From Myxococcales bacterium (GTDB taxonomy: Bacteria; Myxococcota; Myxococcia; Myxococcales; UBA5297), in the NCBI GenBank assembly GCA_049841135.1, contig JASGHK010000008.1, positions 147,272 through 211,271 of the forward strand: DNA of 64,000 nt, written 5' to 3'. Position 1 is the stretch's first letter. Each line of letters opens with the position of its first letter. The position numbers and the translations under genes are program-made. Positions 1 through 19,230 of this stretch are shown here, piece by piece. Under the pieces are notes generated by a model, which saw only the letters and a program-made list of their open reading frames with translations, searched no databases and was not told the origin of the DNA.

Positions 1-1971
1 TCCTTGACCACCTCTAGGAGTTCCCTCGCTGCCGCCTTCGCCTCCTCCGGGGTCGGTTCGGCAGGGACCGGCGCGCAGGGGCCGCTCGGACGGAAGAGAA
101 GCCCAGTCGCCCCGTCATAGCCCGGCTTGTCGATGATGCTGCCATCCGGCCGGAGAGATGGAGAGCCGATCACGCCGCGCAACTCGCGCACTCCTGGCCA
201 GTTGCCGCGACAGAGCGTGGCCGCGATGACTGTCCCTGGAGGGTCCATCGCGACAAGGCCCTTATCGGTTTCGTGGGCCCACCGCAGGAGGGCGCTGGCC
301 ACCTCCCAGAGCTGAGCCGCCGACAACTCGCGGACCACGGGCGCGCCAATCTCGCGGCGGCTGTGCGCGTTATCGGGTTGGCCTTCCCAGGCGGCCACCA
401 TCACGAGGTGCCCGTTGCGCTGATACACGTCCGGATGCCCAGCCAAAGCCTCGGTCAGCGCGGCAACCGATAGATGCCCATCGCTTGGGCGCCAGACGTG
501 GATCGGTCGCTCGTCTCCCCTCACCCTCGGGAGATCCCACTTCTTCCGCGCCATGCGCTTGAGTGTGCCGATCTTCTCGCCGGTCTTGCCCGACAAGAGC
601 CGCAGCCCCTCGTTGCGGTCCATTCTCGACGTGCGGGCCCTGGGCCTCTGCAAGTAGTTTCAGAACGCGATCGATCGCGTCGCGGAGAACGCCCTGCGGT
701 GAGTCCTTGGAGACCCCGGCCAACTCCTGATTGACGCGCCAGACGGTCGCGGGAGTCGCCGCTGCTATCCTCTCCTTCCACTTCTCGATGCCGTGCCGGT
801 GGATGAACTCGTCCGGATCAAGGTCATCAGGCAACCGCTCGACAACGAACGCGGCGATGCCCGCGCGTTGCAGCGCTTCGATGTTGGCGAGCGTGCCACG
901 ATCCCCGCCGCCGTCCGGGTCGCCACAGACACAGACCTTCTGCACTCCTCGCCGCCGCACCGTCTCCGTCTGCTCGCCGTTCAGTTGCGCCGAAACGGAC
1001 GCCACCACGCTGCTGTCTCCGCGAATCTGGGCAAAGGCTGCGTCGTTCACGCCCTCTACAAGAACGATCTCGCGGTTGCCATCCTCCAACGCGCGGTCGA
1101 GGAAGAAGGGCGACCGCTTCGTGTTCTCTCCAGGCAGGGCGAGAGTCTTTGGAACCCCCGTCTCCTTCCATTTCGTGGCTGCCTGTTTGTCGGGGGGCAG
1201 CGCCTGCCATGCGGCCCACTCCTCCTCGCGATCCTTCGCCCACGCCGCAGCGTCGCGCTTCTCTGGGGGTACCTCTGTGTGCCAGCGACCATAGAGGGTC
1301 AGCGGTCGACCGAACTCATCGTTCCAGAGATAGGTGATGAACCCTTCAAACTTGCGCCAGAGCAAGCAGGCCTCTCGCGCCTCGCCAAGATCGGCCCCTG
1401 CCCTGTGTAGCGCTTGCTCGACACGGGCCGCAGACAGATAGAGGCCCAAACCCAGATCGCGGATTTCGGCGTCGGTGTAGTGGCGCCCTTCGCGCAGGTA
1501 AGATCGCGCCCGTTCGCCCTCTGGGCTCCACAACTCCGAGACGCAGAACTCTTGGGCCACAGCTAGGGCCGTGCGGCGCTCCTCGCGTCGCCGTGCTTCC
1601 TCGAGCTGCTCGGGCGTCTGGTCTCGGTCCAGCGGGGAGGCGTCTACGCCCGCCAATCCAGCGAGTTTGCGGATTGCGCGGATGAAGTCCTCGCCGGTCG
1701 GCTTGCGGCCACCGTTCACGAGGTCCAAGAAGCGAACGCCCGCGTGGCCGTGCGTCTTGATCCACCAAGGGCGGTTTTCGTAGACGCAGAGGCGCTCCGG
1801 GTTCTCGTGCCCCACAGACTCGGGGAATCCGGCCGGCCACTTCGTCGCCTCCCAGCGGCGCCCCTTCTTCACCCACCCGAACTCGGGGAAGGCACGGTCG
1901 AGGTTGCGAAAGAGAGCGGGCAGCACCTCGTCCTCAAAGAAGGTGCTCGGCTTCAGGTCGGGGATGCTCAC
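1..1971 (-). CDS. TOPRIM-domain DNA primase-family protein (phage/plasmid type). It continues past the left window edge and is disrupted by indels.
   Basis: DnaG-like TOPRIM motifs EIVLVEGVNDA and VCVCGDPDGGGD in the 370..1971 ORF. Downstream, well-formed protein sequence continues in other minus frames to position 1 (…LLSGKTGEKIGTLKRMARKKWDLP…GYDGATGLLFRPSGPCAPVPAEPTPEEAKAAARELLEVVK). Frame switches at ~606-609 (C4 homopolymer), ~361 and ~300. Confidence 0.55.
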
Positions 1972-2255
1972 GACTCACCCCCGTCCGCGCCAACGGCCTG
2001 CTTCGGCATCGAAGGCTCTGCGCCTTCCGGCCGAGTCCGCAGCTCGCCACGTTGCAGCCCCAACGCACGTTCGACGCGAGCCACCCAGTCGCCGGGAGGC
2101 GTGGCCACTCCCCGAACCCACGCAGAAAGCGTGCTCGGTGACACGCTGAGTCGCTGCGCAAGTTGGGCCTGGGTGAGGTCCGCCAGTGCGAGCGCCGCCA
2201 GATACCGCCTGTGATCCAGTTGCACCATTTTCAGCCTCCGTTGCCGCGCGAACAT
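1968..2255 (-). CDS. XRE-family helix-turn-helix transcriptional regulator
   Basis: HTH signature LTQAQLAQRLSVSPSTLSAWVRG. Overlaps the primase start by 4 bp, so probably co-transcribed. Confidence 0.6.
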   Translation of the reverse strand: MFARQRRLKMVQLDHRRYLAALALADLTQAQLAQRLSVSPSTLSAWVRGVATPPGDWVARVERALGLQRGELRTRPEGAEPSMPKQAVGADGGES

Positions 2256-2321
2256 CGCGGCATCAACGGAAGGCAGGATGCGACTGGCGGGTGGGCTAAT
2301 CGACGGAACTAGGCGGTCGTT

Positions 2322-3161
2322 CTAGCTGCCCTCGTTTCCGCCTATTCCCTGGAGACGATCGTTCCGGAGACGAGCACTCTCGGCGTGCTCCTTGCGCCAG
2401 CGACCGATGCGCGCCTCTTCCTCGTTGACGTCACCGCAGGGGGGCTCTAGCCCAGCCACCACGGACAGCGCAGCAATGTCTCTGTAGGAGATTGCCATGC
2501 CATGCTTCTCTGCTGTCCCGAGTAGGGCTTGGGCGAAGGTTCGGCGTTGGTCCTGAGTGTAGGCGGACTGGTGCGCCGGCCCCTGTTGCTTGGCGTAGTC
2601 TTCAACGTCCCCCAAGTAGCAAGCCATGCGGCGCAACGTCTTCACAAACAGCGGCCACTCGGCAGCGAACCCGGGAGGCCAGGTCTTCCCCGGCGGGCCG
2701 ATCTTCCGGCACGACAAGTAGGCGTGCGCGAGTTCTCTCGCCAGGGCAGGCGACGCGTCCAAAAGGCGCCGATCGGCCACCAGACTAGGCAGCATCTGGG
2801 CGCATATTCCCTTCGCGTTCGTGATCAGGAGACCCGCCCGCTCGTCGCCATGAGTCGCAACGAGATAGGCGGTTGCTGTTTCGAGGCTCGCGGTCGCTGA
2901 TGGCTTCGCCTTTGGCCCAGTCTTCGCCCGCGCCTTCTTCGGAGCCGAGCGAGGCGGCGGGTCTGCGGAGGCTGGCCGCGAGACCTTGGCAGCAGGGATC
3001 GGAGGGAGTTCGACGCCGAGCCTGCGCGCGATTTCCTCGCCATCGGCGCATCGGTAGCAACTCGCCCGGGGACCCTTCTCGCGCTCGTGCCTCTGGCGCT
3101 TCGGACAGTCCTTCTCGGGAAGTTTGCACCGCAGTTTCCTGCAATAGAACGACGCGCCCAT
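2322..3161 (-). CDS. Hypothetical protein with an N-terminal Cys-rich (zinc-finger-like) segment
   Basis: ORF with a GGGAG RBS before MGASFYCRKLRCKLPEKDCP…CYRCADGEE. No family recognised. Confidence 0.4.
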   Translation of the reverse strand: MGASFYCRKLRCKLPEKDCPKRQRHEREKGPRASCYRCADGEEIARRLGVELPPIPAAKVSRPASADPPPRSAPKKARAKTGPKAKPSATASLETATAYLVATHGDERAGLLITNAKGICAQMLPSLVADRRLLDASPALARELAHAYLSCRKIGPPGKTWPPGFAAEWPLFVKTLRRMACYLGDVEDYAKQQGPAHQSAYTQDQRRTFAQALLGTAEKHGMAISYRDIAALSVVAGLEPPCGDVNEEEARIGRWRKEHAESARLRNDRLQGIGGNEGS

Positions 3162-3238
3162 GTTCCGCTCCCACAGCGGCCCCAGGTGAGAACCGGCGGC
3201 GGGCAGGCGCACTGGGGATGCGCTTTTCGGGAGCTACC

Positions 3239-3646
3239 CTAGCCCGCGCCGTTCAACTTGGACTCTACGCCTGGCCGTGCTGCTTCTCCCATTTGTGGAA
3301 CGAGGCCAGTTGCGCTTGCTGGCGGGCGCTGAAGCTGGCAAATGGGCGTGGTCATCGCTGCGTTGAGGTCCGCGAAGGTCGTCTTTCCGGTGCGCTCGCA
3401 GTAGGCGCGCTCCCGCATGTGGAACTGCTGGGCGGTGATCTCGACGTACCAGCGAAACGCGGGGTCCCGGCCGATGCCCGCCGCGATGCGCTCCGACGTG
3501 AGGATGGGCAGTTTGTTGGCGGCGGCCTTCACCTTCCTGGCGACCTCGCGCAACTCGGCGTCGGTGACAGGCTTGACGATGATGGCGGTCTCCGCGGCCG
3601 CGTTCTTGCTCTGCGAGGCTGGACGGTTCAACTTGGTGGTAGCCAT
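3239..3646 (-). CDS. Hypothetical protein
   Basis: 135-aa ORF in the same operon orientation as the RHH and primase genes. No recognisable domain. Confidence 0.35.
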   Translation of the reverse strand: MATTKLNRPASQSKNAAAETAIIVKPVTDAELREVARKVKAAANKLPILTSERIAAGIGRDPAFRWYVEITAQQFHMRERAYCERTGKTTFADLNAAMTTPICQLQRPPASATGLVPQMGEAARPGVESKLNGAG

Positions 3647-3761
3647 TGCGTCGCTCTCCGTGTTCGGCGCGGTGGTGAGGGCGGGGGTCCGGTTGCCGCC
3701 GGGCCTCCGTCCGTTCCTCCTTCCGGCGCGCCAGAACCCGGAGGGAGGAGGAAATCTTCGA

Positions 3762-4022
3762 CTAGCCGATTCCCCTCTTGGCCCTCTCTTGACGCGAGCC
3801 CATGCCCTTGACGGCGCTTGGAGCTCGGGGTGGGGCGATGCCCTCCTGCTTCTCTACAACCGGAAGCCCGGCGAGCAGAATCATGCGAACCACGTCCGTG
3901 GTCGTTGGCGCCAGTCCGGGGCGGGAGAGTTTCTCCTTCACCACCTCCAGGCGCTCGAAGAGTTCATGCTCCAACCTGATGGCGATCTGCGTCGTGTTCG
4001 GCGTCTTGTTCGTGGGCACCAT
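3762..4022 (-). CDS. Ribbon-helix-helix (CopG/Arc-like) DNA-binding protein
   Basis: AAGGAG RBS 6 bp upstream. N-terminal beta-strand plus two helices: TTQIAIRLEHELFERLEVVKEKLSRPGLAPTTTDVVRMILLAGL. Divergent from the resolvase gene. Confidence 0.5.
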   Translation of the reverse strand: MVPTNKTPNTTQIAIRLEHELFERLEVVKEKLSRPGLAPTTTDVVRMILLAGLPVVEKQEGIAPPRAPSAVKGMGSRQERAKRGIG

Positions 4023-4142
4023 GCGCGGCTCCTTGATCGTTGGAAGGAGTCTATTGGCGGTCGCAATATTTGTCAACCACGCATTGCGCGCATTGCTGGG
4101 TGGTGCTACTGTCCAAGTCGCACCCGCTCGGAGGTCTGCCCG

Positions 4143-4784
4143 ATGCCCAAGAGTCAGCCCGCTGCCGCCTGCTACCTGCGCGTCTCCAGCGACCGCCAGA
4201 CCGTCGAGAACCAGCGGGCCGAGGTAGAGGCGCTCGCACGGGCCAGGGGGCTAATGCCGGTCTTCTACGAGGAGACGGAATCCGCGGCGAAGAAGCGGCC
4301 CGAGTTCGACCGGATGCTGGCCGAGGTGCGGCGCGGAAAGGCTTCGGCCGTCGTCGTCTGGGCGCTCGACCGCCTACACCGCTCGATGGCGGGCGCAATC
4401 AACGACGTCTTGGAACTCGACCGCCTCAACGTGCGCGTCCTGTCGGTGCGGGAGCCCTGGCTAGACACGTCCGGCCCAGTTCGCCCCCTCCTCGTCGCCA
4501 TCTTCGGCTGGGTAGCCGAGCAGGAGCGGGCCCGGCTCATCGAGCGGACGAAGGCAGGAATCGAGCGCGCACGGGCCGAGGGGAAGCGGCTGGGGCGTCC
4601 GCCCACGTCGTCTATCCTTCTGCACGCGGCTCGCGATCTTGTCGCCGGGGGCGCGACTGTCGCGGCGGCAGCACGAGCCAAAGGCGTGTCCCGCGCAGCT
4701 CTCCGGCGCTTCCTGTCCGCTCAAGGTGGCCGAAAAGGTGTCTCCGGGGACCCCACTGGCGAGGCCCAGATTCCCGCCCCTTAA
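4143..4784 (+). CDS. Small serine recombinase (resolvase/invertase family) with a C-terminal HTH
   Basis: Catalytic-serine motif YLRVSSDRQ near the N-terminus. Resolvase-like core (VVVWALDRLHRS, ERTKAGIERARAEGKRLGRP). The in-frame ATG at 4143 sits inside the longer 3417..4784 ORF. Confidence 0.8.
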   Translation: MPKSQPAAACYLRVSSDRQTVENQRAEVEALARARGLMPVFYEETESAAKKRPEFDRMLAEVRRGKASAVVVWALDRLHRSMAGAINDVLELDRLNVRVLSVREPWLDTSGPVRPLLVAIFGWVAEQERARLIERTKAGIERARAEGKRLGRPPTSSILLHAARDLVAGGATVAAAARAKGVSRAALRRFLSAQGGRKGVSGDPTGEAQIPAP

Positions 4785-4900
4785 GGTGGGCGACCTCGGG
4801 TGGCCGGAAAGGGTCGTTATCGGCCGCCGGGTCTTCCCAAGCCCGCCACTTGCCGGCGCGCTCCCGTGGCAAGAGACTGAGGCACGGGGAGGTACATGCG

Positions 4901-5224
4901 ATGGCTAAGCGCGAAGCGGGGCGAGCCGTGGTGATCGACGGCTCCTATGGAAGTGACAACGTCTTCAGCCTTCGAATCTTCACGACCCGCGGCAAGCCGC
5001 TATCGCCAGGCGAGACAGATCGGCTGCTGAACGTGATCTCGGAGTATTTCCACGCCATCGGCTTCACTGCCATGAAGGTGGGGACCTACCGCCGCAACCG
5101 CCAAGGGGACGAGTTCCGCTTCCAAGTTGTGGAAAAGGGAGAGAAGTGGATGCCGGTCGAGCCTGTTGACCTGTCTAAGCTCCGAAAGCCGAAGCGGCAG
5201 CCGAAGACGAGGCGACGGCTCTAG
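4901..5224 (+). CDS. Hypothetical small protein
   Basis: GGGAGG RBS before ATG 4901. 107-aa ORF with no recognised domain. Confidence 0.35.
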   Translation: MAKREAGRAVVIDGSYGSDNVFSLRIFTTRGKPLSPGETDRLLNVISEYFHAIGFTAMKVGTYRRNRQGDEFRFQVVEKGEKWMPVEPVDLSKLRKPKRQPKTRRRL

Positions 5225-5274
5225 AGACCGCGAGCCGCAAGCGACGCACATCGTTCGAAGCCGCGTTGGCCGTG

Positions 5275-6351
5275 TTAGCGGCAGCAGGCGGGGCGTCCAG
5301 CAAGGACTTGCGCACAGGAGCCACTTGCGGCGAGCGGGGACTTCCAGAGGCTGTGGTCAGTCCACGTCGACGGCAATCCCATCGACGTTGCGAACAATGG
5401 ATCCTTGTCCACGCTCTGAAGAAGTCTTGCGGCGTCCTGCGCCCACTGCTCGCCTCCTGGCACTGGCTTAGTGAGGTGACGAAGGATGCTGAGGACACAG
5501 AAGACCCTCGTGTTCCCGAATTGCCAAGTTGGATCCTTCTTGGGCAGCAGCGGCTTGATCGACAGCTCGCGATTCCAAAGCCGCCCATGGTGTGCGCAAA
5601 CGTTTCGAACGTAACTGAGCGATCGAAGCCATGAGACGGCGACGATGGCGGTGACCCCGAATTCGCCGGCGATTGGCAATCTGTCGCCGGTCAACATGTT
5701 CTCAAATAGCAAAGAGAGGCTACCGAACGACATGACCTCTGATGCCATCCAGATCGGGATTGACGGGAAGCCGTTGTACTTCGACCGGAAGTGCCCCAGG
5801 AAGTTCTCGCGAGCGCGATGAGTTTCTTTGCGCAGCGAGTCGATCCAGTCTCTGTGTCCCACGGCCCATGAGTGGTCGAAGTTGCGCGCGTCCTCGTGGG
5901 CGAAGGCCCCATGCCTATGACCGAGTTGGTAGGTGATCTTCGTCCGCAGCAGGATCTCTACCCGCTGAATCGCATCGAAGACACACAGCCGCAAGCGTCG
6001 ATCGAACTCGTACAACTCAATCGCTCGCTCGAACGTCGCTCCCGCAATGAACGTGTCGTCGGGGTGCTTGAACGGGTGCCAGTAGGCGCTAAGGCGGTAG
6101 TAGCTGATGCGCGCCAAGCGCTCCAACGCACGCGGACGGTCGGCTACAGCAAGACCGCGACGCTCAAGAAGGGCGAGCTGGTCACTGAAAGTCAGCGCTT
6201 GCTTGCTGTATGGTTGCCCCACAGTTGTCAGTGTGGCTGTTCGCCAAGACGCTGGGCAAGAAAAAACCGGCCTGAGGCGCGTGGCCCTTGCGGACCAGAG
6301 GCGTGGCCGGTGTGTTGAAGGCATTTTGCGTCCCACAGGTTGTGGGGTCAA
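5275..6351 (-). CDS. Abi-like abortive-infection protein (Abi_2 / AbiD-AbiF family). The N-terminal start is uncertain.
   Basis: Family hallmark YSKQALTFSDQLALLERRGLAVADRPRALERLARISYYRLSAYWHPF followed by a conserved helical body. The true start is probably internal (TTG/GTG around 6225-6235). Confidence 0.7.
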   Translation of the reverse strand: MTPQPVGRKMPSTHRPRLWSARATRLRPVFSCPASWRTATLTTVGQPYSKQALTFSDQLALLERRGLAVADRPRALERLARISYYRLSAYWHPFKHPDDTFIAGATFERAIELYEFDRRLRLCVFDAIQRVEILLRTKITYQLGHRHGAFAHEDARNFDHSWAVGHRDWIDSLRKETHRARENFLGHFRSKYNGFPSIPIWMASEVMSFGSLSLLFENMLTGDRLPIAGEFGVTAIVAVSWLRSLSYVRNVCAHHGRLWNRELSIKPLLPKKDPTWQFGNTRVFCVLSILRHLTKPVPGGEQWAQDAARLLQSVDKDPLFATSMGLPSTWTDHSLWKSPLAASGSCAQVLAGRPACCR

Positions 6352-6413
6352 GAGGGAGATGTGTTAGCCGTTGGGGGTGTTTGCCCAACCCCTCGTCCTT
6401 GCTCGTCTTCTGC

Positions 6414-6677
6414 CTAGATCCCCTCCCGCATCACGCGCTCGATCTCCGTCCACGGCACCTTCCAGCGTCCATTGATGCGGATGGCGCGGATCCGCTTGCA
6501 GGCGACCAGTTCGTGCAGCGTGTCGTTGCGGCTAACGCCAAGCATGGATGCGGCCTGCGCAAACGAGAGCAGAGCACGCGGCGGGCGGCGCTTGTGTGAG
6601 AGCAACTCGTCCAGCTTCCGCTCGATGCGGTCCAACTGCTCCCGGAGAGCCTCCCACTCTGCCTTGGTCGGTTCCAT
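6414..6677 (-). CDS. AlpA/excisionase-family (HTH_17) DNA-binding protein
   Basis: LLSFAQAASMLGVSRNDTLHELVACKRIRAIRINGRWKVPWTEIER matches the Xis/AlpA helix-turn-helix pattern. Confidence 0.6.
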   Translation of the reverse strand: MEPTKAEWEALREQLDRIERKLDELLSHKRRPPRALLSFAQAASMLGVSRNDTLHELVACKRIRAIRINGRWKVPWTEIERVMREGI

Positions 6678-6793
6678 ACGAGCGTTCTAGTGCCTCGCGG
6701 ACTTCACGTCTCGTCTCGCGTGGCGCGTGGGCTTTGCGCGGCTGTCTCGCCGGGGCGTAGCATCCTCCCAAGCCGTCAACCGGGGAGGGACCG

Positions 6794-7408
6794 ATGCGAA
6801 TCGCCGTTGTGCTTGCGGGCGCTGTGAGCGCTGTTCTGGTCGCCCACCTCGGGGCTGGCCGCGCGTCAGCGGCCGAGCCCAAGAGGCGCCCCGATGCGAG
6901 CAAGGCCGTCACGCTAGATACTGAGCTTGGTTCTCTTCTCCAGGCAATGACCACCAAGTTGGCTGCTGGGGATTGCAAGGCCTCCACATGCGCGAAGGCC
7001 AATGAAGCAGCACGGAAGTCAGAAGCGGCACTGTCGCCATACCCGGTCGGTTCCTCCGCTGACTTGAAGTGGCACGCAGCCACTAGCAAATGGGCCACGG
7101 ACTTGGCGAGGCTGTGCCGAGATGCACGCCAGGAATCTGTTGATGCTGACGAAAACTTTGAGACACGCCTAAAGATGCGAGAGAAGCCGGTCTCTGACTG
7201 CGAAGGGAAGTGGCTCCTCTCTTCGTCGCTCGACGCGACCGCCAAGATTCTTCGGGCTGCCGCAAAGTCCCTTCCTGATGCGGAGGCGAGCAACAACACC
7301 GCGAATGACATGTACGAGCGGGCCGACGTCTTCGCCGCTGAGGCACTCAAGGCAACCAAATACTTCCACGCGGCCGGATGCTTCGTTGTCGAGACGACGG
7401 GTCCATAG
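6794..7408 (+). CDS. Secreted hypothetical protein
   Basis: GGGGAGGGA RBS. N-terminal signal peptide MRIAVVLAGAVSAVLVAHLGAGRASA. No family assigned. Confidence 0.45.
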   Translation: MRIAVVLAGAVSAVLVAHLGAGRASAAEPKRRPDASKAVTLDTELGSLLQAMTTKLAAGDCKASTCAKANEAARKSEAALSPYPVGSSADLKWHAATSKWATDLARLCRDARQESVDADENFETRLKMREKPVSDCEGKWLLSSSLDATAKILRAAAKSLPDAEASNNTANDMYERADVFAAEALKATKYFHAAGCFVVETTGP

Positions 7409-7515
7409 GCGCGAGACCGTTCTACCGATTGCTTCGTCTTCGGGGGCTTCGTCCTCATCGAACCAAGAAGCGTCCCCCCCCCCACCTTGCACTTGAGCCG
7501 TCGGGGAAGAGAGCC

Positions 7516-8814
7516 TCACTCCGTCGGGCAGTCGCCCGTCTTGGCCGTCAGCAGCCCATCCACAAACGTCAGCGTGCACGTTCCCTTGGCCGTGGTTACC
7601 GCCAGGTGCGTGGTAAGTCCCTGCCGCCAGTCGGTGTCGTAGCCGTAGAGAGTCGGGAAGTAGCCGCCGCCGAGCGCGTAGACGGTACCGTTGAACAGCT
7701 TGTTCCCGGCGAAGGTCTGGTCGGCCGTCGTGACGTGGCCTGCCTGCGATGCAGATGCGGCCTGCGTCGTCAGTGGGCTGCCGGCGGTTCCAGCGCCAGT
7801 GATGGGAGCGGAGACGTGCAGCGCCGCCGCCAGGCTGACCGACGACCAGACTGAGCCAGCGTCGCAGACCATGAGGAGTTGGTCAGTGGTGTTCCATGCC
7901 AGCGCGCCAGCGGCGCACACGGCCGGGAGGCTGCCCACCGTGTAGGAGCCGACGCGAACGGTCTGCGAGAAGTCGCCAGTCCAGCCGGATACCGTGCCCT
8001 GTACTGTGGCCCCATAGGCGTTGATGGTGTGCGTGTAGCCGCCGCCAGTCACGGTCAGCGTTGGGGTGGTGACCGAGGTTGAGAAGGTCTTGGCACCAGC
8101 CGCGGTCTCGTTCCCAGTGAGATGCAGCGCGTACGGATCGGACTCAGACACGCAGACCGGAGGCCCGTCCGAGGCCGTGGTCTTGAGGAAGGTGCCAGAG
8201 TCGCAAACTGGCCAGCCGCTTACCTTCCCGAGCCCGACGCCGTCGATCTCGCCGTCGCTGACGCACGGCCCCTCCAGGCAGTACAGGTTCCCTGCTGCGC
8301 TTGCCCAGTTCACCCAGTCGACGCAGGTAGGCGAGGCGCCGCCCACGGACGCGAGGTTGTACCCGGAGCCGCAGACCGGCCACTCACTGACCTTGGCAAG
8401 GCCGACCGTGGAGATCTCGGAATCGGCCACGCAACCGGAGCACTGGAGGTCTGCCGCAACGCTGGCCGTGGGGGCGTTGGTCGCGCAAGTCATGGCGCCA
8501 GTGCTCACGTTCCATCCGGTCATGAGGCCGCTGCCGCTGCAAGTCGTGCTGGCGCCGTTCCCCTTCACTCCGCCGAGGGTCGATGCTGACGCAACAGGAA
8601 GCGTGTAGCCGGGAGAAGTACCGCTGGGCGTGCAGTTGGTCCAGGCACCGCTACGGCAACACCAGACCTGGGCCGGGTTCGTCTGAGTGACCCAGACGCG
8701 TGACCCTACGCAAGTGCCGGAAGGGATGCCCTCGGCCACATAGACCGGAGGTCCCTGCAGTGCTTGCAACGCAAACGCAACCGCTACTGCGGCGCCTGAG
8801 CCAAGACAGTCCAT
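7516..8814 (-). CDS. Secreted cysteine-containing repeat protein (fibre/lectin-like)
   Basis: Start MDCLGSGAAVAVAFALQALQG (signal peptide, GGGAG RBS). Internal ~45-aa repeats (EISTVGLAKVSEWPVCGSGYNLAS / EIDGVGLGKVSGWPVCDSGTFLKT). Thr/Gly-rich beta-rich C-terminus. Confidence 0.5.
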   Translation of the reverse strand: MDCLGSGAAVAVAFALQALQGPPVYVAEGIPSGTCVGSRVWVTQTNPAQVWCCRSGAWTNCTPSGTSPGYTLPVASASTLGGVKGNGASTTCSGSGLMTGWNVSTGAMTCATNAPTASVAADLQCSGCVADSEISTVGLAKVSEWPVCGSGYNLASVGGASPTCVDWVNWASAAGNLYCLEGPCVSDGEIDGVGLGKVSGWPVCDSGTFLKTTASDGPPVCVSESDPYALHLTGNETAAGAKTFSTSVTTPTLTVTGGGYTHTINAYGATVQGTVSGWTGDFSQTVRVGSYTVGSLPAVCAAGALAWNTTDQLLMVCDAGSVWSSVSLAAALHVSAPITGAGTAGSPLTTQAASASQAGHVTTADQTFAGNKLFNGTVYALGGGYFPTLYGYDTDWRQGLTTHLAVTTAKGTCTLTFVDGLLTAKTGDCPTE

Positions 8815-9254
8815 GACCAACTCCCATCCGAGTTTTGAAGGCAGATCAAAAGTTGCTCCGGAGTGCCTTCGTCCTGCACACGTACAAAGCGGCCAAGCCA
8901 GTTTGGACCTGGGGCCGGAAGCAGTTCGGTCTTGCCGGGCACTGCGCCCGAGGTGACGAACCGCGGCGGGTACATCGCTACCGTGTTCCAAGACCACCGA
9001 TGCTCATTGTTGGTGCTCGCGTCCTGCAGACAGACCTGCAACTGCTCGGGGGTTCGGAGGCTGTCCCAGACGCGAATCAACTCGCCAGCCTGGGCCTCGC
9101 CTGCCTTGAGCCGCTTCGCTGTCGTAACCCTGGGCGGATAGGACATTGCCCAAGCAGTAAGGACACGGAGAGCGGCGATAACCTGGTCCTGGAACCGAGC
9201 TAGGACTCCGTCGTTGACGTGGAGGCGCATGGGCTGCGGGAAGTTCCGGGGCAT
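8784..9254 (-). CDS. Hypothetical protein with two copies of a ~30-aa CLQ…SWSW repeat
   Basis: Repeats IRVWDSLRTPEQLQVCLQDASTNNEHRWSWNTV and VRVQDEGTPEQLLICLQNSDGSWSWTVL. Paralogous to the adjacent upstream gene. Confidence 0.45.
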   Translation of the reverse strand: MPRNFPQPMRLHVNDGVLARFQDQVIAALRVLTAWAMSYPPRVTTAKRLKAGEAQAGELIRVWDSLRTPEQLQVCLQDASTNNEHRWSWNTVAMYPPRFVTSGAVPGKTELLPAPGPNWLGRFVRVQDEGTPEQLLICLQNSDGSWSWTVLAQAPQ

Positions 9255-9274
9255 GGCGTGCGGCTCCTTGAGGT

Positions 9275-9571
9275 TCAGGCCTTCGCCACTGTTGCCCAGT
9301 GCCACGAGTCGTCGGCCCGCTGCAGGCAGATCACCAGCGAATCCGCCTCGCCCTCGTTCACCAGCCGCACCATGCACCCCTCGAAGAACGCGGACGGGGC
9401 CGGGAGCGCCTGGGGCGTGTAGCAGGGGAGGCGCCGCTTGAACCGAGCGAGCAAGACACGCGGCAGGGCTCGGAGGGCGGCCCACAATTCAGCCAGAAAT
9501 TCCCGATTTCGATTCATTTGTAATTCTTTCATTGTTTGCGTGCGCCGAGCAATCAGACAATCCGGCTTCAC
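9275..9571 (-). CDS. Hypothetical protein, a paralogue carrying one CLQ…SWHW repeat
   Basis: VRLVNEGEADSLVICLQRADDSWHWATV plus an N-terminal helix similar to the neighbouring gene. The start may be at an internal Met (MKELQ). Confidence 0.4.
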   Translation of the reverse strand: MKPDCLIARRTQTMKELQMNRNREFLAELWAALRALPRVLLARFKRRLPCYTPQALPAPSAFFEGCMVRLVNEGEADSLVICLQRADDSWHWATVAKA

Positions 9572-9682
9572 TCTTGCTGAATACTAGCGAAATTCATTCT
9601 TGATATTGCATTCTATCACGCGATAGCCCTAATCGAGCGTATAATTATCATCAACAAATCGCATCAAATAGGAGTCTTCCCG
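9486..9682. promoter_or_regulatory. AT-rich intergenic island, likely a divergent promoter region inside the acquired element
   Basis: ~200 bp of roughly 35-40% GC in a 70% GC background. Contains TATAAT-like hexamers (tataat, tattg) and short inverted repeats. Lies between divergently oriented genes. Confidence 0.45.
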
Positions 9683-9940
9683 ATGGCTGAGAACGAGCCC
9701 GCGCCGCGCCCTGGTTCAGTCGTGCCGCTCCCACCTCGACACCGCAAACTGCGAAGCGCCGCGAACGTGCGCAGCCTCATGGCGTGGATCGTCCGGGAGT
9801 TGGAAGCCAACCGCCTGGACCCCGAGCGGGCGCGCGCCATGACCATGGCTGCCCAGACGCTGCTCAAGTCCATCGAGACGGCCACGCTTGAGAAGAAGAT
9901 CAAGGACTTCGAAGCCAGCCGGCGAGCGGGCACGCTGTGA
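9683..9940 (+). CDS. Hypothetical small protein
   Basis: AGGAG RBS directly upstream. 85 aa. First gene of a three-gene operon. Confidence 0.45.
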   Translation: MAENEPAPRPGSVVPLPPRHRKLRSAANVRSLMAWIVRELEANRLDPERARAMTMAAQTLLKSIETATLEKKIKDFEASRRAGTL

Positions 9941-10206
9941 ACTACAAGCGCATGCGCCGGAGGGTGGAGCGCCTCATTGCCCAGCTCGAACAACGGCAGG
10001 GCGCTGCAGCCGTCAACAACCAGGTCCTCGCGCGCGAGCCCAAGCCGCCCGCACTGCGCATCGCCGGGCCGGTGGATGCCACTGCAGCCGACTGGGCCGG
10101 GAGACTGCTGCGCCTACCTCCCGAGGTCCGCCGCGCCGCGGTTGAGCGCATGGGCCAGGTGCTTGCCGAGGTCGAGCAAGACGCAGCGAAATCTTCGGGG
10201 AAGTAG
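9937..10206 (+). CDS. Hypothetical small basic protein
   Basis: GTGA start/stop overlap with the preceding gene. 89 aa. Confidence 0.4.
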   Translation: MNYKRMRRRVERLIAQLEQRQGAAAVNNQVLAREPKPPALRIAGPVDATAADWAGRLLRLPPEVRRAAVERMGQVLAEVEQDAAKSSGK

Positions 10207-10262
10207 CGGCCGGTTTTCATAATTTGCACTCGCGGGCTCGCGCTCGCAGTCGAGGTGAAGCG

Positions 10263-10727
10263 ATGCCTACCCTCCGCTTGCCTGAAGCCCCCTCGCTTCG
10301 AACAGAGCAAGGCCTTTGGGCCCTCGGGTATCGCTGGGTGTGGGGTATCGCAGCCTTCGGGCTCGCTCGTGACGGACAGCCGCAGAGCATCCACGCCGCA
10401 GCCGTCTTGCTCCCCGAGGACTTCAAGCCGGCAGACCTGGCGCCCGAGGTCATCCGCCAGCGCGTGCGAGCGTGCGCGTTCGGTTCGGCCGAGGTCACGA
10501 GAGGCGCACCCCTTCGCCGGGTAGGACTTCGGGCCGCACAGCGGGCGGTCGACGCCCTGGGCCTGCCGCTCGACTACCTGCTACGTGGCTTCTCGTATGA
10601 CCTGCCGGGCACCTACGTTCCTGGCGAGCACATCGAACAGGGCGAGCAACGGTGTCTGAGCATCGCCGCAGCCGCAACCCTCGCCGGATTGGCAGTCCGG
10701 GAACGGATGGCACAGTCTGGCGCGTGA
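10263..10727 (+). CDS. RNase HII-like protein with substituted catalytic residues (predicted inactive)
   Basis: GAGGTG RBS. RNase HII-like blocks are recognisable: VWGIAAFGLARDG (where RnhB has GVDEAGRGP), DYLLRGFSYDLP (RnhB YVLIDGNRCPKLP) and EQRCLSIAAAATLAG (RnhB GDSRVPEISAASILAK). The D-E-D-D catalytic positions read A-A-R-E. Confidence 0.45.
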   Translation: MPTLRLPEAPSLRTEQGLWALGYRWVWGIAAFGLARDGQPQSIHAAAVLLPEDFKPADLAPEVIRQRVRACAFGSAEVTRGAPLRRVGLRAAQRAVDALGLPLDYLLRGFSYDLPGTYVPGEHIEQGEQRCLSIAAAATLAGLAVRERMAQSGA

Positions 10728-10728
10728 C

Positions 10729-11124
10729 CTACTGCTTCGCGGCACCCGCTGCCGCCGGCTGCGTCTTCTTCCACTCCTCAAACGCCGCCTTGGCCTGCCT
10801 GTCCTGCTCCTCGGCGCTGAGCGGGGCGATCTTTTCAGTAGCCGTGACCGGGTTGGCGGCAGTGGGCGCTACGGGCACTTGGGCCGGCGGGGTGGCGCAC
10901 TGGATGGCGATGAAGCCGTTGACGCTGGTTGCCTCATCAATGATGTAGCCGTCGGGGCACGCGTCCCCAGCGCGCGCGACGCAGTTGGAGTGATTCCGGC
11001 ACCTGATCCCCAACCAGTCGGCGCCATCGGGCCCGCGGAAGACGTCGGTCCGGGCCCTGCTCGCGCAACTCAGGGTGAGTGCAAACGCTACGACAACGAC
11101 TGCGAAGCCGGCGCCGCGAATCAT
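10729..11124 (-). CDS. Secreted hypothetical protein
   Basis: Start MIRGAGFAVVVAFALTLSCASRA (signal peptide). Cys-containing small domain, then an Ala/Pro-rich tail. Confidence 0.45.
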   Translation of the reverse strand: MIRGAGFAVVVVAFALTLSCASRARTDVFRGPDGADWLGIRCRNHSNCVARAGDACPDGYIIDEATSVNGFIAIQCATPPAQVPVAPTAANPVTATEKIAPLSAEEQDRQAKAAFEEWKKTQPAAAGAAKQ

Positions 11125-11545
11125 GGGAAAACCCCCGCAGCGGGAAAGATAGCACGGCGCCAATCTCGGGTCGGCGGTCGTGCTCCCGGGCGCACCACCC
11201 ACGTTCCGCGCCGCGACGTTGCCCTGCTCCGCACGCTCTCTGCCTTCCCTTGGCCCTCTGTCTGCAACGGGGGCGCTGGACGGGTTCTCGATGGAGGGAG
11301 GGCGGCGGGATGACAGCGGACAGGATGTTTCGGAAGCTCGCAGCGCTGGCGCTGGCCGTGGGCGAGTTGGAGCTACAGACCGCCCAGAAAGAGCGCGACT
11401 GGCAGCGAGTCCGACGGGCAAGACTGCTCCTAGCCGCAGCCGAACGGTTCGCCAGCGCGCTGCTCAGCACGGGCGTTGAGGTCCACTTGACCTTGGATGG
11501 GCTCTGACCCCGAGGTGCTACAGTGCCGAGCGGGAGGCCTAGACC

Positions 11546-12196
11546 ATGACTCGGCTCGTAGTCGCTGCGATCGCATGCCTTGTGGCTGCCAACTGCACGG
11601 GCCCGGCGGGGGCGCAAGGGGCAAAAGGAGAACAGGGGCCCCAAGGCGTAGTTGGTCCGACTGGCGCGACTGGGGCAACGGGGGCTACCGGAGTAGCAGG
11701 CGCGACAGGGGCCCAAGGAGACCCAGGCACCAAGGGCGATCAAGGTGAACAGGGAGCGAAGGGCGACCCCGGCGCAGCATGCAGGCAGGCAGTCTTGAAG
11801 ACAGCAAATGGCGCCGTCGTTGGAGTGGGAGTGGCGCCGTTCGGGCCTCCCAACTTCGATACGACCGTGACCGCGTTCAACACTGCGGCCAACAAGTTGA
11901 TGGTCGTGCGGCTGGACACCGGACGCCTGGACGTTCGCGCCGTCGTCTACTTCGAAGACGCCTACTGCGGCGGGAAGGCGTGGATTGAGAAGACAGGAGC
12001 CGTCCTAGTCGAAGGCGAGAGCACGACGCGTCTCTTCGCCCCCACTTTCACCAAGGCTCAGTCCTTCCAAGCGGGCTCGATGATCGCCATGCAGGGATGC
12101 ATCAGCAACAGCAAGTCCGGCACTGGCTATCCCGTGACGGAAGTGACCGACCCCGCCTATCCCTACGCCACGCCGCTGGAGATCGTGCTCCAGTAG
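11546..12196 (+). CDS. Collagen-like triple-helix repeat protein (secreted/lipoprotein)
   Basis: Signal peptide [19 protein letters not shown]. About 25 Gly-X-Y triplets ([28 protein letters not shown]…). Globular C-terminal domain. Confidence 0.65.
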
Positions 12197-12298
12197 CCCT
12201 CTCAGACCGCCCGGCCGGCGGGCACAGATTCTCGCGAGCTGCCACGCGGGTGACTCGGCGTGCAGCGGGTCTCGCTAGCTCGAACGTAGGATCGCGCA

Positions 12299-12625
12299 AT
12301 GCCCGAGAAGAAGCCCCAGGAACTCCGCGTGAGGATCGTCAACACCTGCGCCAACGAGGCGGAAGAGGAGGACGTGCGGCGCGAACTCGTGCAATGGATG
12401 CTGCGAGTAGACGCCCGGTGCCAGGCCGAGGACGCCCTGGTCAAGCACACCGTCAACGCCATGACTGCGGATGAGCGCGAGCGGATCCGAAGCATCAACA
12501 TCGCAAACACCCGGGCTGAACGGTTACGGGTCTGGAGGGACTATGTGGCCTGGCTCCAGCGAGTGAAGGCCGACGTCGGAGGGAACAAGCATCAGAAGAC
12601 GCCTCGCGCAAGGCGGCGCAGTTGA
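12299..12625 (+). CDS. Hypothetical protein
   Basis: 108-aa ORF, charged and helical. No family recognised. Confidence 0.35.
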   Translation: MPEKKPQELRVRIVNTCANEAEEEDVRRELVQWMLRVDARCQAEDALVKHTVNAMTADERERIRSINIANTRAERLRVWRDYVAWLQRVKADVGGNKHQKTPRARRRS

Positions 12626-12655
12626 CCTGTTCGTGGAAGCGAGCGCTTAGGGGGT

Positions 12656-12895
12656 GTGCCGATGCCTGACGACAAGAAGCCGAAGCCCCATTGGCAAGAG
12701 GAGGGAGAGCTTCCCACCGATGAGTGGGTGAAGCAGATGGCAGCCGAGATCAGGGCCAAGCGGGAACGGAAGCGCCAAGAAGGCAAAGCGCAGAAGCAGC
12801 CACCGACCACGGACGACCCGCCCATGTTCAGACTTGGTGGGCAACCGCCTGTTGAGCCGCCACCTCGGGACCCGCCCGAGGACGAAGAAGGCTAG
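12656..12895 (+). CDS. Hypothetical small charged protein
   Basis: 79-aa ORF rich in K/E/P. Confidence 0.3.
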   Translation: MPMPDDKKPKPHWQEEGELPTDEWVKQMAAEIRAKRERKRQEGKAQKQPPTTDDPPMFRLGGQPPVEPPPRDPPEDEEG

Positions 12896-13353
12896 TCTTC
12901 GACACCCAGACGACCCGAAAGAGGAAGCGCGCGAATCGCGTCCCTGTCTCCTTTGGACAGAGGGATCTTCTTCGCCCGAGCAGCGATAGCGGCCCAGTCG
13001 CCAGGTTGGGTTGGCGCGGCTCGTTCGTCCTTTGGCCGTGGTGGCAACTCGCGCACCGGGTCTTCTTCAAGTGCCGCTACCACGGAAGCACGGAAGACCA
13101 TCGTGCGTCGGCCGATTCGTCTGGCTCGACGGACCACTCCGTCCCGAATGAGCGCGAAGACGTGGGTGCGCCCGCAGCGGAGGAGTGTGGCCGCCTCATC
13201 GACGGTGACCACGAGTGGTTTCTCGACGGCATCGTTGGGCCGAGAGGCTTGGTCTTTAGTTGCTGAAGACTTCGCCTCGACCAGCGCCACGAGTCTCCGG
13301 GTCAAATGGACGAGTTCGACCAGCAACTCCCGTTCAGTCTCAAGAGTGGGCAT
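12892..13353 (-). CDS. AlpA/excisionase-family (HTH_17) DNA-binding protein at the element end
   Basis: [47 protein letters not shown]. Located directly next to the comM junction. Confidence 0.6.
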
Positions 13354-13539
13354 GCGCGAAGCCTAGCCCGACGCGCCAGGAGGCCTCAGGACGAACGTGC
13401 AGCGTGGCCCATCTGGGAGCCCAACCCACTACCTGTGACGCGCAGGAAGGGCTGTTTTGGCGGTTTGGCGGGCCACGGCGGGCGGGCCTTCCTACACCGC
13501 GACCGAGAGGAGAAACGGTACCCCGGACATATGTCCCGA

Positions 13540-14426
13540 CTGGGTTGATGCTCGGGCCGCCTGGCTCTGGGAAGACGATGCTCGCCAAGCGCCTGCCCAC
13601 CATCCTGCCGGGCATGAGCTTCGAGGAAGCGCTCGAGACGACGAAGGTCTACAGCGTCGTGGGCATGGTCGGCGACCGCTCGCTCATCTACGAGCGCCCC
13701 TTCCGCGCGCCGCACCACACCATCAGCGACGCTGGCCTCATCGGCGGCGGCTCGGTGCCGCGGCCGGGCGAGGTCTCGCTCGCGCACAACGGCGTGCTCT
13801 TCCTGGACGAGCTGCCCGAGTTCAAGAAGAACGTCCTCGAGGTCCTGCGCCAGCCTCTGGAGGACGGCAAGGTCACCATCGCTCGCGCCGCGCAGACCAT
13901 CACCTTCCCCTCGCGGATGATGCTGCTGGCGGCGATGAACCCCTGTCCCTGCGGCCACGCGGGCAGCGGCACGCACCCCTGCAACTGCAACCCCAAGGAG
14001 GTCCTGAGTTACCGCTCGCGGATCAGCGGGCCGCTGCTGGACCGGATCGACCTGCACGTCACCGTGCCGCCGGTGCGCTACCGCGACCTGACGCCGCAGC
14101 GCGAGGGCGAGACCTCCGCGGCGCTGCGCGAGCGAGTCCAGCAGGCGCGGGCGCTGCAGCTGACCCGCTTCCTGCGGACGCCGGGCACCCACTGCAACGC
14201 GCAGATGACGCCCCGGCAGATCCGCCGGTTCTGCGAAGTCGACGCCGAGGGCGCCTCGCTGCTGCAGAACGTGGTCGACCGGGTCGGCATGAGCGCGCGG
14301 GCCTACGACCGCATCCTCAAGGTCGCCAGGACGATCGCCGACCTCGACGGCTCCGAGGCCATCCGCTCGAGCCACGTCAGCGAGGCCATCAGCTACCGGA
14401 CGCTCGACAGGAAGCTTCCGGCTTGA
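13540..14426 (+). pseudogene. comM: comM/yifB (Mg-chelatase-like AAA+ competence protein), 3' two-thirds only. The N-terminal Lon-like domain is missing.
   Basis: Homology begins abruptly at Walker A ([17 protein letters not shown]) and runs through the ChlI AAA+ and C-terminal domains (AAMNPCPCG…). The ~200-aa N-terminal domain is absent, and the upstream DNA encodes the oppositely oriented Xis-like gene. Confidence 0.75.
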
Positions 14427-14524
14427 AGGGCGCCGCCGGCGCGCCTCCGGAGGATGGGCCTCCGGGGCGCGGGCGGGCGGCGGTTCACACGACGAGCCCT
14501 GGGCAAGGGCGGGAGGGGAGAGGC

Positions 14525-15572
<1,048 letters not shown>

Positions 15573-15743
15573 CCAGCGGGACGGACGTGTCGGCGGGCTC
15601 GCCGCCAAGGGAACATGGGTGGCTGGGTGAGGTGGGGTGGCGAGTGACGAGCGAGGGCCCGGAGCCATTCCGGTTCCGGGCCCTCTTGGTCGGGGCAGGT
15701 CAACCGCGCGCTGCGAGAGCGGCGCAACCGAGGAGGGGACGCA

Positions 15744-16205
15744 ATGTCGATGGCAAGGGCGATGGGGCGGGAGCGCGAAGCGCGCCGGTGGACCGGAGCC
15801 ACGATCATCCCGGCGGTGCACGGGGCCGCGCGCTGGGCGATGGGCGAGCATGCTGCGGTCCGCGAATACCTCGAGGCGCAGGAGAGCGCTCACGGCCAAC
15901 CTGGCGAGGTGCCTGAGAGCGAGATCGGCCGGCTGGCCGCGCGGCTCTACGAGAGCGGTGCGACGCGCGAGGAGCGCAAGGAGCTGCTCGCGTTCCTCGC
16001 CCACCACGGCACGGCCCGGGCGACCAGCGAGCTGCAGCGCTTCGTCGAGCGCTGCGAGCCCGGGCTCTTGCGCTTCGCGGAGCTGGCCTACGAGGAGGCG
16101 CTCGGCCGGGCCCAGCCCGCAGCGCGAACGCTGGGCCGCCAGGAGCCCTGCCCGTGCGGCAGCGGCAGCAAGTTCAAGGACTGCTGCGCGCGGGGGCTCT
16201 CATGA
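15744..16205 (+). CDS. SEC-C motif domain protein
   Basis: C-terminal [13 protein letters not shown] metal-binding SEC-C motif. Confidence 0.55.
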
Positions 16206-16519
16206 GGACCGCCCTCGTCGCCCTGCTCGCGGGAGCACTGCTCCTCGGGACTGGCTGCTTCATGCGCCCCTGGGCCATCGAAGAGAGCGACCGGATCGAC
16301 CGGCTGCTGGAGCACGAGGTGGACGACGCCGACGGCGAGGCGTTCGCCGGCGTCTCCACGCCGCGGTGCCTAAGCCCCACCGCGGTCGCGGAGGTCGAGC
16401 ACCGCTCGAGCACTGCCCAGACCAAGAAGGCGAAGAAGGGCAACTCGAAGGGCTCGAAGGACATCGTCTCCTTCTCTTCCCTCACGCCCGGCTCGAGCAA
16501 GAGCGGGAAGAAGCGCTAA
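16202..16519 (+). CDS. Small lipoprotein
   Basis: ATGA overlap with the upstream gene. Lipobox LLLGTGC after a signal peptide. Lys-rich tail. Confidence 0.45.
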   Translation: MRTALVALLAGALLLGTGCFMRPWAIEESDRIDRLLEHEVDDADGEAFAGVSTPRCLSPTAVAEVEHRSSTAQTKKAKKGNSKGSKDIVSFSSLTPGSSKSGKKR

Positions 16520-16546
16520 GGCTCCTGCCGGCACTCGAGGGCTCGC

Positions 16547-17191
16547 CTAGAGGAAGCTCTCGGGGACGTAGACGATGTCCCCGGGCTGCATGAAGAAGTT
16601 CTTCTCCCGGCCCTCGCCGATCGACTCCACCGGCACCTTCACCTTGCGCTCGTCGCTCTGGAGCGTCTTCTCGTCGACCACGACCCGCGTGACGATCACC
16701 GAGTCCTTGGCAGCCATCTTGGTGAAGCCGTTGGCGAGCGTGACGGCCTGGATGATGGTCATCTGCGGCTCGAAGGCGAAGGTCCCCGGCTTCTGCACCT
16801 CGCCGAAGACGAACACCTTCTGCGAGTTGTACTCCTTGAGGAAGACGGTGACCTGTGGGCGCTTGAGGTAGCCGTTCTTGAGGCAGCTGGTGAGCAAGTC
16901 CACGAGCGCACTGGAGGATAGCCCCGAAACCTTGATGCGGCCGCAGAACGGGTAGTCGATGGTCCCCTCGGTCGCCACCCGGAACGCGCCCGACAGGTCG
17001 GGCTCCTGGTAGACCCGGACCTCGAGCACGTCGCCGACCCCCAGCGCCGAGTTGGCCACCGGCTGGCTGCGAGCCATCTGGTCGCGGGTCGAGTAGCTCG
17101 GGACTTCCCGGCCAGGCGTCTTGCAGGCTGGCGCGACCAGCACCACGAGCGAGGCGACGGCGAGCAGGAGTGCGGAGCGCGAGACGAGCAT
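16547..17191 (-). CDS. Outer-membrane polysaccharide export protein, short OPX/Wza-like (Poly_export + SLBB)
   Basis: Lipoprotein signal (LVAPAC). Poly_export/SLBB-type sequence ([20 protein letters not shown]…[11 protein letters not shown]…[12 protein letters not shown]). Lacks the C-terminal Wza helix. Confidence 0.7.
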
Positions 17192-17261
17192 CGAACTCAC
17201 AAACGCGGGCAGGAGCGCGGGGATTCCCGCGTGCGCGCCCAGCAAACGTTCGGCGGAAGGC

Positions 17262-18509: not shown

Positions 18510-18672
18510 CCGTAGTTGCGGCCTCAATCCTGGCTCCAAATCGGCAATGCGGCCCGCCCTAGCGGTGGCCCGGCAGCCACCGGACTTCCTCGACTTTTCT
18601 GCATCCCGCCCGGACCCTCGATCGAGGGCTTTCGCTGAAGCGCTGACTACTTAGCCCAACGCCGTCTCCTGA

Positions 18673-19230
18673 TCAACTGGTGGGACTGGCGGGTGGAGGG
18701 CGGTTCACCGGCGGCGGCGGCGGTGGCGTGACCGTTGGGTCGACCTGGGGCAGGTCGGGAGGCACCTCGACGATGACCTCCGTGTCCCCAGTCTCGAAAG
18801 CGAGCATGCCCACGCACTGCTCCGCCTCAGCCTTCAGCTGCTCGATCTTGGCGCGGGCGATGGTGACCTTGGTGTACTCGTGCTCGGCGGTCTGGGACTC
18901 CTTCTTGGCGACCGCCTCCTGCAGCGAGATGTCCGCCTGCTCGCTGATGCGCAGCAGGCCCTTGATGTTGGTCAGCTTCTCGTTGACGCAGTTGAGCTTG
19001 ACGACGTCCTTGCTCGCGCGTGCTTCCTCGAGCTTGCCGAGGACGACCTTCAGCCCCGCACGCATCTGCGTGAGGAACTCGGTCGACTTCTGCAGCTTCT
19101 CGGGGTCCGGGACGTTCTCGGCCTTCGCCTGTGTCTGGTCGGAGGTTGCAGGAGGCTCCGCGGCAACCGCGGTCCCCATCACCAGCCCCCCGGCCAGAAC
19201 CCCAGCGACGATCGACAGCCGCTTTCTCAT
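18673..19230 (-). CDS. Secreted coiled-coil protein with a Pro-rich C-terminus
   Basis: Signal peptide, heptad-rich central region, then PPPPPPVNRPPPASPTS tail. Confidence 0.45.
   Translation of the reverse strand: MRKRLSIVAGVLAGGLVMGTAVAAEPPATSDQTQAKAENVPDPEKLQKSTEFLTQMRAGLKVVLGKLEEARASKDVVKLNCVNEKLTNIKGLLRISEQADISLQEAVAKKESQTAEHEYTKVTIARAKIEQLKAEAEQCVGMLAFETGDTEVIVEVPPDLPQVDPTVTPPPPPPVNRPPPASPTS

Follow-up and report, generated by a model that had tools for sequence, protein, structure and literature searches.

What are the two small adjacent genes, here called A and B, that lie on the minus strand at 8784..9571 of a 64,000-nucleotide stretch from a Myxococcales bacterium (GenBank assembly GCA_049841135.1, contig JASGHK010000008.1, positions 147,272 to 211,271; the whole stretch is referred to below as the window), and what can be said of the three copies of one protein module that they contain? 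Genes A and B almost certainly belong to an unannotated, previously undescribed family of small phage tail proteins. Their functionally informative neighbour is the downstream gene C, which encodes a fibre-like protein, and not the operon transcribed divergently from them. Elsewhere the module comes after a T7-type attachment domain or forms the front end of a fibre protein, and we therefore lean, with some reserve, towards a role of A and B in anchoring or connecting tail fibres.

The module and its family

The family emerged from an exhaustive HMMER scan of 1.84 billion representatives with a profile built from B and A, which returned 46 protein clusters at E<=1e-3 (relatives are cited below as P for proteins and L for loci). 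All 46 align over a module of about 41 residues (consensus LPAASAAYAGRLIRVKDAGQPEQLQICLQKSDGSYEWVTVA), in which a proline, a cysteine and the last tryptophan (Pro44, Cys69 and Trp79 in the numbering of A) are invariant or near-invariant. About two thirds of the matches are proteins of 57-123 residues, most of them 80-105, built like A and like residues 1-96 of B; a typical member of about 90 residues consists of an N-terminal helix (with an N-R-x-Q-D/E-x-h motif), a PRYTTA linker, the module and a stop. Residues 1-96 of B (LARFQDQV ... PPRVTTAKR) align end to end with such members, and the N-terminus of A aligns more loosely (NREFLAEL ... LPCYTPQ). One match, P0001, is gene A itself as called from TTG 9454, identical over the C-terminal 59 residues of A, and its NCBI entry reads 'MAG: hypothetical protein QM765_47355 [Myxococcales bacterium]', on a 3.3-Mb contig.

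Less sensitive routes recovered little or nothing. Pfam, PHROGs and NCBIfam gave no module match for A, B or their relatives, and no PDB sequence matched the module; a word-indexed homologue search with B in 5.8 billion clusters (E<=10), a GTDB genome pattern search with B, and tblastn with B and a typical member against 50,697 deposited phage records all returned nothing. A hand-made degenerate DNA pattern hit three genome loci (two of them true), two viral loci and four metagenome loci (two true, both duplicates of the viral ones). Looking up A, B and P0001 by exact match retrieved no contig. Since only the exhaustive HMMER scan recovered the family, the early impression of an orphan was an artefact of sensitivity. 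An earlier note on this DNA, made from the letters alone, had recognised no known family here; this stands for the curated collections and PDB sequences, but the module recurs in at least 46 clusters, which occur in phage tail gene modules. A conserved tail-fibre domain that Pfam, PHROGs, NCBIfam and word-indexed searching had missed gains a name and a testable role.

The minus-strand open reading frames of the interval contain all three peptide strings that the same note had quoted when it described two adjacent paralogous genes sharing a triplicated module of about 30 residues. The repeat itself is well founded, its scores lying far above those of shuffled sequences: against a baseline of 2000 shuffles (mean about 22, standard deviation about 4), local BLOSUM62 scores reach 108 for A with B2 and 82 for B1 with B2, neither equalled by any shuffle (0/2000 each), and 45 for A with B1 (2/2000 as high). 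Its length had been underestimated, the unit comprising about 41 residues plus a PR(V/F/Y)TTA linker of about 10; of the 41 module positions, 19 have the same residue in A and B2, and B1 carries an insertion of 4-5 residues (STNNEHR) ahead of the last strand. Both a three-copy hidden Markov model (HMM) and a later 53-copy family HMM find exactly three module sites in the six-frame translation of the whole 64 kb. A marginal extra copy at 12205-12540 (E 0.037 with the three-copy HMM) disappeared with the better model. The idea of a local triplication holds for the number of copies, not for their age: as alignment scores of B2 are 118-127 with outside members, compared with 102 for A and 77 for B1, and no DNA-level repeat was found among the copies, the three are old and not the product of a recent local event. 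Gene A is a divergent family member, the older and more divergent paralogue, and is uncoupled.

Gene A most likely begins at ATG 9532 and ends at TGA 9277-9275, with GTG 9571, ATG 9517 and TTG 9454 (the NCBI call behind P0001) as other possible starts; gene B begins at ATG 9254, seven bases after AAGGAG at 9269-9264, and ends at TAG 8786-8784. The two frames differ and are separated by an intergenic gap of 20 nucleotides. Guanine-cytosine (GC) content at codon positions 1/2/3 is 0.65/0.48/0.79 in A and 0.64/0.49/0.73 in B, the third-position values being below those of the host-like genes farther right in the window (0.87-0.98). Codon-position GC and family homology together mark A and B as real coding genes.

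The assembly does contain indels, the window's recA being frameshifted at about 15040, and the earlier note had asked whether A and B might be one gene split in this way. We give almost no credence to the idea that a sequencing indel has split one gene of known type into A and B, or has fused two genes into B, since the end of A and the start of B match the ends and starts of full-length family members: the stop of A lies 6 residues past the invariant Trp, against 8 in the family, and B opens with the family N-terminal motif behind its own AAGGAG-ATG. Furthermore, B2 is preceded not by a second N-terminal helix but by a PRF-VTSG linker alone (the counterpart of the family's PRYTTA), and the unrelated member P0002 (154 residues) is likewise laid out as a helix followed by two module units, so that B is an internal duplication and not a fusion artefact. 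As judged from the sequence, A and B are separate, complete genes despite the indels of the assembly.

Structure prediction, which the earlier note had proposed as a check, gave a confident AlphaFold2 model of A (19-sequence alignment), with a mean predicted local distance difference test (pLDDT) score of 89, and 95-98 over the module. The predicted fold is a long helix (residues 2-31), a linker with a short bridge, and a three-stranded sheet of antiparallel strands (54-57, 65-71 and 77-84). Modelled with only A as its alignment, B reached a pLDDT of 43, which makes that model useless.

The dual-coding junction with gene C

Genes B and C overlap by 31 nucleotides (8784-8814). The start codon of C (ATG 8814-8812) is formed by the codons TCA-TGG at the invariant Trp of the module, and GGGAG at 8825-8821, within the Asp-Gly-Ser codons of B, is placed as the Shine-Dalgarno sequence of C. 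The same combination of a 31-nucleotide overlap, an xxA-TGG start and a GGAG-like motif occurs at nine loci counting B/C, the eight others being two ENA contigs, L001, L003, L005/L006, L007, L008 and L012/L016. The overlap measures exactly 31 nucleotides at every locus with a module-terminated protein and available DNA or gene calls, and at the overlap loci the D-G-S/G-x codons, 6-8 nucleotides before the ATG, spell GGAG or GGGAG. The overlap arises because the codon preceding the invariant Trp ends in A, so that xxA-TGG yields an ATG. In this neat example of dual coding, the stretch that encodes the conserved DGSxxW strand also provides the fibre gene with its ribosome-binding site and start codon, which ties the two genes to each other and may help to explain why the DGSxxW motif is conserved. 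At the end of gene A the motif reads DDSWHW, with neither GGAG nor ATG; no downstream start overlaps it, and B follows only after the intergenic gap. A programmed -1 frameshift fusing B to C was also considered and was set aside, as the 31-nucleotide overlap holds no slippery heptamer, either here or in L003.

Gene C has counterparts in the genes that follow the small gene in the phage contigs, with which it has in common an N-terminus composed of Met, a hydrophobic stretch, QGPPVYV and the pattern G.C.G.RVW..WCC..W..C. BLASTP of C against the downstream proteins of L003, L005, L007 and L001 gives E-values from 1.7e-14 to 8e-4 over the N-terminal 55 residues or so, and an internal fibre motif is common to C and the L001 protein (E 4.7e-8), which itself matches PHROG minor-tail families. 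Weak matches of C to BppL_N (E 1.2e-4) and to a PHROG virion structural protein complete the picture. Two parts of C, its N-terminus (GSRVWVTQTNPAQVWCCRSGAW) and an internal stretch, were tried as further module copies and rejected, the family HMM giving them 0 bits or less. Additionally, the fibre-like downstream proteins (window 8745-8814 (-); L003 6124-6210; L005 10243-10330; L007 7914-7985; L008; L012) all have N-termini resembling signal peptides, with basic residues, a hydrophobic stretch of about 15 residues and, ahead of QGPPVY, an AxA-like motif; four conserved cysteines come after it.

Table 1. Positions of the A-B-C genes, their module copies and the adjoining spacer in the window.
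Feature	Position	Strand	Description
Gene C	7516..8814	-	432 aa, fibre-like protein
B/C dual-coding junction	8784..8825	-	GGGAG and ATG inside B codons
Gene B	8784..9254	-	156 aa; canonical N-terminal helix NDGVLARFQDQVIAALRVL, then two linker-plus-module units
Module copy B2	8799..8921	-	residues 112-152 LPAPGPNWLGRFVRVQDEGTPEQLLICLQNSDGSWSWTVLA; near family consensus; family HMM 71-72 bits
Module copy B1	8976..9104	-	residues 51-93; divergent; family HMM 43-44 bits
Gene A	9275..9532	-	85 aa; N-terminal helix plus one module; open reading frame and translation
Module copy A	9284..9406	-	residues 43-83 LPAPSAFFEGCMVRLVNEGEADSLVICLQRADDSWHWATVA; family HMM 65 bits
Spacer	9533..9682	.	150 bp, 43% GC, between A and the divergent plus-strand genes

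Relatives and the role of the small proteins

A survey of the genomic context of homologues, which the earlier note had also proposed, bears directly on function: the small gene recurs just before a fibre-like gene, and nine look-ups or pattern matches of relatives are concordant. In L002, L003, L005, L006 and L007 an SU10_adaptor gene is followed directly by the small module gene and then by a large gene, which encodes 420-725 residues in the SU10-like contigs; L002, L005 and L007 also show SU10_portal and/or SU10_MCP matches, most of them weak or faint, and in L003 and L006 the adaptor is the sole match. At L001 no SU10_adaptor gene stands directly before the small gene. Annotators can take the small gene as a sign that the receptor-binding gene module begins, in a group of high-GC, SU10-like environmental podophages and in their prophage remnants.

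Equally informative are the relatives in which the module forms part of a different architecture. In P0049 (L002), helix and module stand at the very start of a collagen-like fibre of 368 residues, encoded directly after the adaptor gene; L004 encodes two proteins in which an attachment-type N-terminal domain is followed by the module and then by a beta-helix or another C-terminal domain; P0012 (190 residues) consists of an attachment domain and the module only; and P0037 carries the module four times in tandem. The N-terminal domains of module proteins match Pfam Phage_T7_tail (PF03906) in two cases and PHROG tail or tail-fibre families in five, and the N-terminal domain of P0012, not its module, matches tail fibres and tailspikes of cultured podophages. 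The recurring unit is an attachment element joined to the module, with the remainder either fused to it or encoded by the next, overlapping gene.

Two of these relatives deserve a separate word. The L004 proteins are adjacent (7676-9985 and 10001-10813), with near-identical heads of N-terminal domain plus module and different C-termini (a beta-helix in one, a small domain in the other), and the pair resembles a swappable receptor-binding set. P0041 (430 residues) combines a signal of the twin-arginine translocation (Tat) type (RRAFLK), a pectate-lyase beta-helix and a module at its end, which suggests that the module also occurs in secreted bacterial enzymes, beyond virions.

On a model taken from other known fibre anchors, the N-terminal helix of A and B would fix the protein to the tail, in the related phages to the SU10-type adaptor, and the module would serve as a platform or neck bearing the N-terminal domain of the fibre protein encoded next, which here is C. 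The fibre would thereby consist of two polypeptides, a small anchor and a large distal part, whose translation would be coupled through the ribosome-binding site and ATG of the fibre gene within the DGSxxW codons of the module, keeping both in step. In the window, B would be the canonical anchor, with its linker-plus-module unit duplicated internally and its translation coupled to that of C. What the analysis shows is membership of the family, conserved gene order, the overlap, the fused architectures and the modelled fold; the anchor or connector role, the oligomeric state and any continuing use of the cassette are inferred.

Comparison of the predicted fold with known structures is compatible with such a role. 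Foldseek against the PDB found nothing at E<0.1; the best BFVD matches, with 25-30% identity across 41-51 columns (E 1.6e-3 to 2e-2), are to phage tailspikes, and the weak neighbours are rich in N-terminal domains of about 40 residues from trimeric tailspikes and fibres (7chu, 7w1c, 6c72, 6e1r, 7xyc, 1yu0, JBD30). For the modelled structure, these matches would fit a fibre building block and prove nothing.

Several observations weigh against an anchor role. These structural matches fall below conventional significance, and the placement of family members in virions is drawn from gene context. The module stands at the extreme C-terminus of P0010, P0012, P0030 and P0041, a position that would also suit a distal tip, and P0041 looks like a Tat-secreted beta-helix enzyme, not a virion protein. 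Moreover, the signal-peptide-like N-termini of the fibre partners are odd for a virion protein assembled in the cytoplasm, and the anchor model leaves them unexplained. No similarity was found to gp12 of phage SU10 (hhalign of profile A3 against gp12 residues 1-200, probability 0.1%); adaptor, portal, capsid and terminase families have no match within 1-19257 of the window, where only the spacer and divergent genes lie upstream of A; and the assembly carries indel errors, as in recA.

The C-terminal position of the module in many longer fibre-like or beta-helix proteins (P0010, P0012, P0019, P0030, P0041, P0044) is what would be expected of a distal tip or ligand-binding domain, for example a glycan-binding one, with the proteins of about 90 residues forming short whiskers or decoration fibres on the adaptor; its fourfold tandem repetition in P0037, as often seen in binding modules, and the Tat-like signal and pectate-lyase-type beta-helix of P0041 point the same way. 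We nevertheless consider this unlikely, as P0049, P0033, P0036, P0046 and the L004 tailspike have further domains after the module, which always directly follows the N-terminal attachment element, and the strict conservation of the coupling, to a fibre gene whose product has a conserved N-terminal domain, suggests partnership, not an independent whisker.

Gene order speaks to a further alternative, namely that A and B are assembly factors (chaperones or scaffolds) for fibre C and are absent from the finished particle. To our knowledge, known fibre chaperones (Tfa, gp38, gp57A and the intramolecular C-terminal chaperones) are encoded after the fibre or at its C-terminus, whereas the family gene lies upstream of the fibre at all loci, and the helix-plus-module unit, where fused, occupies fibre N-termini, the attachment end and not the chaperone site. 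Small proteins whose translation is tightly coupled to that of the fibre gene would suit such a task, but A and B have no Pfam, PHROG or NCBIfam match to tail-fibre chaperone families of the Tfa, gp38 or gp57A types, or to any other chaperone family, and an assembly role appears quite improbable.

The island cassette and known fibre systems

The A-B-C cassette lies in a part of the window with lower GC content (0.60-0.68 over 1-13000, against mostly 0.69-0.76 beyond about 39 kb), in the company of a toprim primase, a serine recombinase, an Abi_2 protein, unannotated small genes, a collagen-like protein and a 5'-truncated comM (Mg_chelatase). The comM/YifB-type Mg-chelatase ATPase gene at 13260-14426 (+), which lacks the codons for about 110 N-terminal residues, borders the lower-GC island (1 to about 13200) on its right side, and the island was therefore probably inserted into comM. 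Since no adaptor, portal or capsid gene was found alongside A-B-C, the cassette is most likely the remnant of a temperate SU10-like phage in an island at comM; its present-day function is uncertain, given the missing adaptor and the indels of the assembly. For the window itself the meaning is modest, that of a stranded fibre cassette in a genomic island.

A cassette still at work would imply more. As an island-borne fibre set, A-B-C could be fitted to the adaptor of an SU10-like phage, either a resident or a helper, with A and B forming an asymmetric heteromeric anchor: the one module of A and the two of B would match the three modules of an ordinary homotrimer of proteins of about 90 residues, and would anchor a trimeric fibre C. 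We hold this to be very improbable; if true, the cassette would change the host range of an SU10-like phage. A related possibility, prompted by the signal-peptide-like N-termini of the fibre partners, is that the protein pair acts outside virions too.

The spacer upstream of A is presumed to be the promoter region of an A-B-C unit transcribed leftward, and a scan of it for a sigma-70-type promoter consensus found none. Co-regulation of the unit with the divergent operon, which the earlier note had suggested, has adjacency as its sole support. The third divergent gene, at 10224-10727 (+) and encoding 167 residues, resembles RNase HII faintly (18 bits in NCBIfam, E about 1e-3, the cut-off being above 240), and its product has no Pfam or PHROG match.

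Further genes of the island and its border can be noted for orientation. A collagen-repeat protein at 11546-12196 (+), with GxY repeats (Pfam Collagen E 1e-9), many PHROG tail-fibre matches and a lipoprotein-like signal (..VAANC), may be another fibre-type gene of the island. Just left of the cassette lie an Abi_2 abortive-infection-type protein at 5275-6351 (-) (E 2e-55) and a serine recombinase or resolvase at about 4140-4784 (+) (E 3e-36); a Gin/Cin-style invertible fibre segment driven by this nearby resolvase was considered and rejected, as no convincing inverted repeats flank the cassette. The last 80 or so residues of a Toprim-domain primase-like frame at 370-1971 (-) look like out-of-frame, low-complexity read-through, which may reflect another indel, and the recA frameshift (gene at 14520-15572 (+)) falls in the conserved FINQLRQK stretch and is either an assembly indel or the mark of a pseudogene.

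Among known systems, the closest parallel in gene order is Escherichia phage SU10 (Kuravirus), where the gene after that of adaptor gp11 encodes gp12, the proximal protein of the long tail fibre, whose N-terminal 90 residues or so bind the adaptor, and gp13 is the distal protein (PMC9509320). The small gene of the relatives occupies the position of gp12, after the adaptor and before a large fibre-like gene, and in SU10, too, the fibre is made of a proximal protein bound to the adaptor and a separate distal one (PMC9509320). However, gp12 has 786 residues and a coiled coil, whereas family members have about 90 residues; the gp12 and gp13 genes are separated by 40 nucleotides, as opposed to the 31-nucleotide overlap in the family; and SU10 has its adaptor gp11, whereas none was found at the window's cassette. 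Synteny speaks for a trimer that, as with gp12, would sit on the adaptor and bear the distal fibre. Because the position of gp12 is shared with no detectable similarity, the claim is that A and B would work like a fibre anchor, not that they are homologues of gp12.

Resemblances of another kind lead to the small N-terminal beta domains of trimeric tailspikes and fibres and to DUF2793-type proteins (JBD30 baseplate 8rk3_a, GVE2 ORF18 7chu, K1 lyase 7w1c, Mtd 1yu0). As these scores are below significance and DUF2793 (PF10983) has no Pfam match in any of 47 members, homology to such domains is unproven.

The attachment domain of the T7 gp17 type (PF03906) stands directly before the module in several relatives, the module itself lying outside it; A and B have a single helix in its place and no PF03906 match. 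P0012, with its attachment domain and module, can be likened to a fibre adaptor, small adaptor proteins being known from branched-fibre podophages, such as gp37 of SP6/K1-5.

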